Source: Octopus vulgaris (taxonomy: Eukaryota). From it: 64,000 nucleotides of DNA. The first letter of the stretch is position 1. The number at the start of each line of letters is the position of its first letter. Position numbers and translations under genes: made by a program. Below are positions 41,141 through 41,665 of the stretch, piece after piece. The stretch spans positions 14,446,001-14,510,000 of the forward strand of contig OX597821.1 in the NCBI GenBank assembly GCA_951406725.2, in the 5' to 3' direction. The notes beneath the pieces were generated by a model. It saw only the letters and a program-made list of their open reading frames with translations, was not told the DNA's origin and ran no database searches.

Positions 41141-41183
41141 TCTGATTCCAGGGAATGAAAAATAAAAACATTTACCATCTTTC

Positions 41184-41254
41184 TCTCGGACCATGGTTTC
41201 AAACTCTAATTAGCAAATAAAGTAATTTGCTAGGTGAAGTTTTCATCAGCAGGA
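41184..41254 (-). ncRNA. Type I minimal hammerhead ribozyme, sense to the Kv2 pre-mRNA
   Basis: Minus strand reads TCCTG-CTGATGA-AAACT...AGTTT-GAAAC-CATG-GTC-CGAGA. Confidence 0.72.
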
Positions 41255-41367
41255 ATGCCAAAAGGCAATACAAAACTGTGCTTGCGTAGTGGATTTGAAA
41301 AATTATAATATGCAAGTACAAAGCATGTACTGTATTGCCTTGTATTTATATGTTAATCTTTTGGTAT

Positions 41368-41438
41368 TCCCACTGATGAGAACTTCTCCTAGCAAATTAC
41401 TTTATTTGCTAATTAGAGTTCGAAACCATGGTCCAGGA
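41368..41438 (+). ncRNA. Type I minimal hammerhead ribozyme
   Basis: CTGATGA (41373-79), helix II GAACT...tagcaaat/atttgcta...AGTTC, GAAAC (41422-26), CATG, GTC (41431-33), CAGGA; predicted cleavage after 41433. Confidence 0.8.
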
Positions 41439-41665
41439 GAAAGATGGTAAATGTTTTTATTTTCTATTTTTCATTCCCTTCGAAATTACCCTTAATAGTG
41501 GTTTGAATTTTGACTACCCCTTCTAGCGTATTAGGTGTCCTATTATGGTCATCTCTTATGTGTTTAAATGTACACTGTATTTATATGAATTATACATAGT
41601 CTATTGACTAGTTTCTACATGTTAGGCCACTGGTCCTAGATATATATATATACACACACACACCC

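Follow-up and report, generated by a model that had tools for sequence, protein, structure and literature searches.

A decayed head-to-head hammerhead repeat in a Kv2 intron of Octopus vulgaris and the retrozyme-like family to which it belongs

The window analysed here is a 64,000-nt stretch of the Octopus vulgaris genome (contig OX597821.1, positions 14,446,001 to 14,510,000) that contains a Kv2/Shab potassium channel gene on the minus strand (96..63027), recognized by its Pfam BTB_2 and Ion_trans domains and by a best PDB match to Kv2.1. The T1 exon of this gene occupies a frame at 61810-63027 (Kv2.1 residues 10-198), and the pore exon a frame at 96-1280 (Kv2.1 residues 186-464), both on the minus strand. 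Judging from the contiguous protein match, the pair of hammerhead motifs described below would be situated between these two exons, within an intron of ~60 kb. The pore exon also contains an Rfam K_chan_RES match (528-641, minus strand, 65.6 bits), and a second fold-back repeat is found within the Kv2 intron at 9121-9540, where long inverted arms are evident in the sequence.

Directly beside the hammerhead pair is a mariner-type relic (40804..41146, plus strand) that represents the left third of a ~930-bp element. It shares 81-83% identity with many genomic copies, and three fuller copies carry terminal inverted repeats of 30-36 bp. The relic includes a decayed transposase N-terminus at ~41012-41140, with a weak match to Pfam HTH_48 (E=4e-4, under the curated cut-off), and it stops at the repeat insertion. 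The original prediction had placed the hammerhead element at the truncation point of a mariner relic, and this is correct: the relic breaks off at 41140-41146, and a search of the 64-kb window did not recover the other ~590 bp of the mariner element. A 9-bp hairpin at this junction (41132-41140/41146-41154) was considered as a mark of template switching and set aside, since chance likeness of the two elements may suffice. A separate repeat, at 40303-40701, lies directly left of the relic and shows 91% identity over 416 nt to a copy at another locus (L020). In other public runs, near-identical contigs (0-2 differences) read across the mariner junction (41036-41177, 0 differences) and across the central junction between the two arms (41205-41359, 1 difference). 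Therefore, the fold-back structure is real DNA and not an assembly artefact.

The left arm (41150..41271, minus strand) is an inverted, 5′-truncated copy of a repeat; it is sense to the Kv2 pre-mRNA and ends 45 nt beyond its cut site. The right arm (41272..41634, plus strand) is antisense to the pre-mRNA and is likewise 5′-truncated, retaining ~360 nt of a ~450-nt unit at 80-89% identity to family copies. At the 3′ end of the element is a (TA)n/(CA)n tract (41639..41715), the usual neighbour of this repeat family. The element is thus longer than the interval first flagged (41150..41479), with the right arm reaching 41634. The two arms differ at 8 of 105 aligned bases.

Both arms present the hammerhead core, CUGANGA, GAAA and NUH around three helices. 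In the right arm the type I hammerhead (41356..41445, plus strand), delimited from sequence, pair counts and folding, comprises a distal helix I absent from the original prediction (ATCTTT/AAAGAT, 41356-41361/41440-41445), a broken helix I (TCCCA 41368-41372/CAGGA 41434-41438), the core CTGATGA (41373-41379), helix II (GAACT 41380-41384/AGTTC 41417-41421) with its extension (TAGCAAAT 41390-41397/ATTTGCTA 41404-41411), GAAA (41422-41425), a palindromic helix III (41425-41432), and a GTC ending at 41433, after which the RNA would be cut. The left arm carries, on the minus strand, TCCTG, CTGATGA (41249-41243), AAACT/AGTTT, a GTC ending at 41189 with the cut site after that position, and CGAGA; a deletion of ~19 nt near 41264 takes out the 5′ strand of its distal helix I. 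Accordingly, the helix II variants, the helix II extension and the GUC triplet of the original prediction were all found where it had placed them, and the elements are a hammerhead pair, of type I, with both catalytic cores intact. The motif occurs far beyond chance, with 76 genomic matches to a tight core pattern as compared to 0 for the reversed control. Rfam hammerhead models gave no match at gathering score in the window, nor at E<=5 in five loci, and likely miss the motif because of its long helix II.

Searches of the 2.8-Gb genome revealed a dispersed, non-coding repeat of ~450 nt that carries this type I hammerhead and occurs as monomers, partial tandems and fold-backs. The unit is circularly permuted: in many loci the sequence 3′ of the ribozyme re-enters the sequence 5′ of it, and no coding DNA was found between the two in these loci. 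Same-strand hammerheads are spaced 437-463 nt apart in six loci, with one additional partial case. More than one unit is present in 16 of 98 loci, the longest spanning ~1.5 units. Same-strand pairs account for 6-7 of the 98; in L034, L053, L068 and L069 both matches are near full length, and all are decayed. No array longer than ~1.5 units was found among the 98 loci, and the window copy has no same-strand pair. Two further loci hold the unit twice through local duplication and not as tandem units, 2,373 nt apart in L111 (G000:C3:168222084 and 168224457) and 784 nt apart in L092. The family looks old, as the best non-self long matches reach only 87% among the first-look candidates that were scored (40 of 1,671 and 40 of 3,383).

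The head-to-head layout of the window copy is common in this family. An orientation-neutral pattern retrieved 61 loci, of which 11 show it; among the 29 loci retrieved with a fold-back query, a biased sample, the count is 13. Both arms carry a hammerhead match, full or partial, in 14 loci, counting the window copy. A (TA)n/(CA)n tract lies within 20 nt of 74 of 127 mapped segment ends, in a tally that includes non-terminal segments and has no background control. Published accounts of Penelope-like insertions describe an inverted, 5′-truncated copy and a bias toward TA (Craig et al. 2021, PMC8557442), and hammerheads paired on opposite strands 100-700 bp apart have been reported (Cervera and de la Pena 2014, PMC4209133). 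Because the layout is both common in the family and published for Penelope-like insertions, we conclude that the hammerhead pair is an insertion footprint, namely two 5′-truncated head-to-head copies from one old insertion. A palindrome made at the DNA level, whether MITE-like or a fold-back repair product, might merely contain a hammerhead-like motif, as a near-palindrome next to a mariner relic could suggest. This explanation is extremely improbable: it is refuted by inversion points that vary between loci, most copies are single-armed and lack fixed terminal inverted repeats, and the covariation described below fits an RNA structure.

For the covariation analysis, 119 distinct hammerhead copies were aligned and 110 were kept, nine partial rows being dropped. 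Core columns are conserved at 93-100%, although 75 seed copies had been chosen on part of the core. The original prediction had interpreted a G-C versus A-U difference between the arms, at the pair closing the core (10.1-11.1), as a compensatory change. G10.1-C11.1 is reported as highly conserved (PMC4209133). In our alignment the pair is G-C in 60 copies, G-U in 28, A-C in 8, A-A in 6, A-U in 4 and something else in 4. The four A-U copies compare with 3.84 expected under independence (Fisher p=0.58; p=0.74 without the window's arms), no excess appears in either half of the sample, and the four are scattered tips that need four separate changes on the tree. C11.1 belongs to a CpG, and 32 of the 110 copies now read TG there as a result of decay. 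The swap is therefore two independent decays, as random decay gives, and the compensatory reading is not upheld. A subfamily (L022, L024, L025, L111, L113 and L119) has the core UUGAUGA, which is U3 with G8 unchanged, together with A-A at 10.1-11.1; in five of these copies the adjacent pair has also gone from A-U to G-C, a compensatory change. This subfamily spread despite its non-canonical core, either as a variant ribozyme or as a passenger cut in trans.

Other pairs behave differently from the flagged one. The original prediction had proposed that genomic copies be checked for covariation, and in this check distal helix I, helix I and pairs 2-3 of helix II covary, whereas 10.1-11.1 does not. 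For example, the central pair of distal helix I is G-C in 41 copies and C-G in 34, with two C-C and no G-G. Across the 110 copies, helix II pair 10.3-11.3 is A-U in 86, G-U in 12 and G-C in 11, with no A-C, and pair 10.2 is A-U in 103, G-C in 5 and G-U in 2. The inner helix I pairs also covary (p<1e-10), with a contribution from mutation bias as both lie on CpG. Over the whole structure of 19 pairs, 87% of cells are paired, and the covariation score is 0.226 as compared to 0.163 for shuffled alignments (above all 500 shuffles) and at most 0.072 for slid controls. The number of pairs with two-sided change (nine) shows no excess over shuffles (190 of 500). These counts are of copies and not of events, with ~1-5 changes per pair on the tree. 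The tree itself has little resolution, with 3 starred branches out of 105, and the short left arm, which fills 23% of columns, is misplaced in it, so that the position of this arm is unusable. The helix II extension TAGCAAAT/ATTTGCTA shows little compensation, one of its pairs being broken in 40 of 110 copies.

Helix III is palindromic in the family, as ACCATGGT (32 copies), ACCTAGGT (17) or a 9-nt near-palindrome (14), and the palindrome swaps between subfamilies (CATG/CTAG). Folding predictions give it -8 to -11 kcal/mol as a duplex and a positive energy as a hairpin. Such a helix, stable between molecules and unstable within one, fits a dimeric hammerhead of tandem repeats. Covariation between subfamilies shows that the ribozyme fold of this family was at one time under selection. 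In the ancestor the ribozyme was likely active and probably acted as a dimer within tandem transcripts; an active ancestor had also been proposed originally, and that proposal is retained here on the different ground of between-subfamily covariation.

The helix I of the ancestor was probably not the one first proposed. The left arm reads TCCTG/CGAGA and the right arm TCCCA/CAGGA, so that each arm does keep one strand of the consensus TCCTG/CAGGA that the original prediction had assembled. Among five non-window copies with the same subfamily diagnostics, the relevant dinucleotide is CG in three, TG in one and CA in one on the 5′ strand, and the same counts are found on the 3′ strand. When the same dinucleotide reads TG in one copy and CA in another, this marks a CG in the ancestor. 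The ancestral helix I of the window copy was thus likely TCCCG/CGGGA, a perfect helix as in the nearest subfamily, that would have decayed mostly by CpG transitions. TCCTG/CAGGA does occur in sister subfamilies; as the ancestor of the window copy it would need four non-CpG changes and is probably wrong. What had been described as complementary helix I defects between the arms is, likewise, CpG decay.

In its present state the window copy is not predicted to cleave. Neither arm has an intact helix I, with mismatches at the inner pairs, and folding predictions give helix I a pairing probability of 0-0.13 in the left arm and 0 at the two inner pairs of the right arm. By the same approach, helix I at the core folds in the intact copies L004, L015 and L079 (0.73-1.0), though not in L058. 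For RNA of the whole locus the predicted fold is a single hairpin (-182 to -192 kcal/mol) in which the hammerhead helices have probability 0, and the arms are predicted to pair over ~110 bp and thereby hide the ribozyme. On the gene's strand the right arm would be transcribed first, and the left ribozyme would be captured on emerging. With helix I broken and the arms paired together, the window copy is predicted to be dead as a ribozyme.

These results bear on the notion of a functional pair, in which two ribozymes held in register by selection and by a compensatory change would cleave the Kv2 pre-mRNA or regulate it. In favour of this notion, each arm retains an intact catalytic core, the left arm has the same sense as the Kv2 gene, and the locus is ~99% identical in runs under three organism labels. 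We nevertheless consider such a function highly improbable, because covariation is absent at the flagged pair, neither arm keeps an unbroken helix I, and the 8 differences in 105 aligned arm positions fit neutral decay. Moreover, the arms are on opposite strands and pair with each other, so that no dimeric hammerhead is available in cis and mutual sequestration is predicted. The claim of a functional pair is therefore not sustained.

In ADAR-edited intronic inverted repeats, two repeat copies within a pre-mRNA pair as a long, near-perfect hairpin, and A>G changes cluster on the gene's strand. The present locus differs in that a single insertion event gave rise to the two arms, one of which is a ribozyme relic. 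A single contig with a depth of 5.9, from a run presumed to be RNA (X3), reads across the central junction, which is unique, and shows 16 differences. Six of these 16 were itemized, and these six together with five in a loose end are all T>C, which is A>G on the gene's strand. In the interior of the contig, 6 of 17 arm positions are changed as compared to 0 of 33 spacer positions (p=0.0008); the arm count is 5 of 17 without position 41365, which is ambiguous since T>C there is also seen in DNA-like runs. The adenosine singled out by the original prediction, at 41242, is opposed by a mismatched C, and the presumed RNA shows G at this position. The same change in runs X1, X2 and X4 was rejected as evidence of editing, as it falls 8 bases from contig ends and may originate from the other arm or a paralogue. 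The T>C cluster is absent from locus-specific contigs of DNA-like runs. This arm-confined cluster, seen in one contig of presumed RNA that has no matched DNA, suggests A-to-I editing.

We compared the repeat with known hammerhead-bearing elements. It appears to work like a metazoan non-LTR retrozyme, sharing the sequence features of that class that could be tested, except for long arrays. As described for non-LTR retrozymes (PMC7229834; 10.64898/2026.07.22.740005), the unit is non-coding, low in GC and head-to-tail, with one type I hammerhead; it has a short palindromic helix III that suggests action as a dimer, occurs as dispersed monomers and dimers, and co-occurs with Penelope-like elements. 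Reported retrozymes measure 150-450 bp, which puts the present unit (437-463 nt) at or just above the top of this range. It differs from typical retrozymes in that no long arrays were seen, and its helix II, unlike theirs, is prolonged via a 5x5 internal loop by eight more pairs, a form that Rfam models miss. Retrozymes are expressed as linear or circular monomer RNA, and for this repeat such a monomer is putative. With endonuclease-bearing Penelope-like elements (PMC4209133, PMC8557442) the repeat shares partial tandems, an inverted 5′-truncated copy at the 5′ end and (TA)n neighbours, and with the reported Penelope-like pseudo-LTR hammerheads it shares opposite-strand pairs, a conserved G10.1-C11.1 and a palindromic helix III. 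Unlike Penelope-like elements, the unit has no RT/GIY-YIG frame belonging to it. Minimal hammerheads, as described, carry an extra base between positions 9 and 10.1 that this motif lacks, and its helix I is two-part and canonical-like, unlike that of the minimal Penelope-like hammerheads. The literature on octopus and cephalopod hammerheads, retrozymes and Penelope yielded no published account of this repeat family; supplements, Repbase and Dfam were outside this search and may hold a record.

A potential helper is encoded in the genome, which holds many intact 781-residue frames with RT and GIY-YIG domains whose 3′ ends abut (TA)n. Ten such Penelope-like loci (L162-L171; RT, CxxC-type linker, GIY-YIG) are 95-98% identical with (TA)n ~1.27 kb downstream, and by eye their 3′ end shows a hammerhead-like motif with a U3-A8 core. 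These frames presumably belong to the Neptune clade. The unit itself matched none of 45 GIY-YIG loci (blastn and profile searches for 30 of them, a profile search alone for the other 15). Similarly, tblastn of eight Penelope-type proteins against 123 loci (L001-L123) and the window hit only L056, where an unlinked coding relic lies on the opposite strand and across a microsatellite from the repeat. A profile match in L135 was dismissed as a helper link, being a separate, distantly related repeat beyond a TA tract (E=3e-6). None of the family loci examined has an RT and GIY-YIG frame joined to it between pseudo-LTRs of this unit, and the repeat is not an autonomous Penelope-like element.

An alternative holds that, instead of being a separate non-autonomous element, the unit represents a 3′ pseudo-LTR stub left by an extinct coding Penelope-like family. 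The 5′ truncation, inversion and TA neighbours described in PMC8557442 are expected in either case, and coding copies would be rare among truncated ones. An unrelated young hammerhead repeat, moreover, looks like such a stub and forms the same fold-backs in 6 of 19 loci. However, in many loci of the present family the sequence downstream of the ribozyme re-enters the upstream sequence with no coding DNA between, and no family locus joins Penelope coding sequence in sense, which makes the stub explanation unlikely. The young repeat end just mentioned (L140:95-575 and L177-L196) has at least 40 copies at 96-98% identity with a 3′ end in (TA)n. Its hammerhead follows the same plan, with a 5-bp helix II bearing a long insert and the palindrome ACGATCGT, and it is a better bench candidate than the window copy. 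Further hammerhead-like motifs with a long helix II are seen in repeats beside microsatellites (L135:600-720, L139, L153 and L163).

We therefore favour, with considerable confidence, one old and now decayed insertion of a ~450-nt non-coding hammerhead repeat as two 5′-truncated head-to-head copies, likely laid by a Penelope-like RT and endonuclease. Mobilization by a Penelope-like enzyme is suggested by the insertion footprint, which consists of 5′ truncation, partial tandem, inverted 5′ copy and microsatellite target. Tandem transcripts would have self-cleaved through a dimeric hammerhead with palindromic helix III, and the resulting unit-length RNA, perhaps circular, would have been copied more than once round. 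Target-primed reverse transcription may then have inserted the copy at (TA)n tracts together with an inverted 5′ piece, and both arms would afterwards have decayed neutrally, mostly at CpG. In the Kv2 pre-mRNA the hairpin predicted from the two arms would conceal the ribozyme and is likely ADAR-edited.

The repeat family is an addition to a known class, and the window copy is ordinary. As a dead copy of that class, whose inverted pair is a published insertion footprint, the single locus matters little. It does carry a lesson: where one side of a pair lies in a CpG, finding both sides changed between two sister copies cannot be taken as evidence for compensation. The family as a whole offers a natural covariation series for a hammerhead, missed by Rfam, whose helix II is long and interrupted and whose helix I has two parts, and this series could test whether an internal loop can replace loop 2 in the tertiary contact. 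A speculative and very improbable extension is that Penelope-type fold-back insertions build ADAR hairpins in one step, and that the one in this Kv2 intron both cages its own ribozyme and attracts editing by which the channel transcript is tuned. If many of the edited hairpins in the neural introns of this organism turned out to derive mainly from fold-back stubs, retrotransposon insertion chemistry would be linked to RNA editing.
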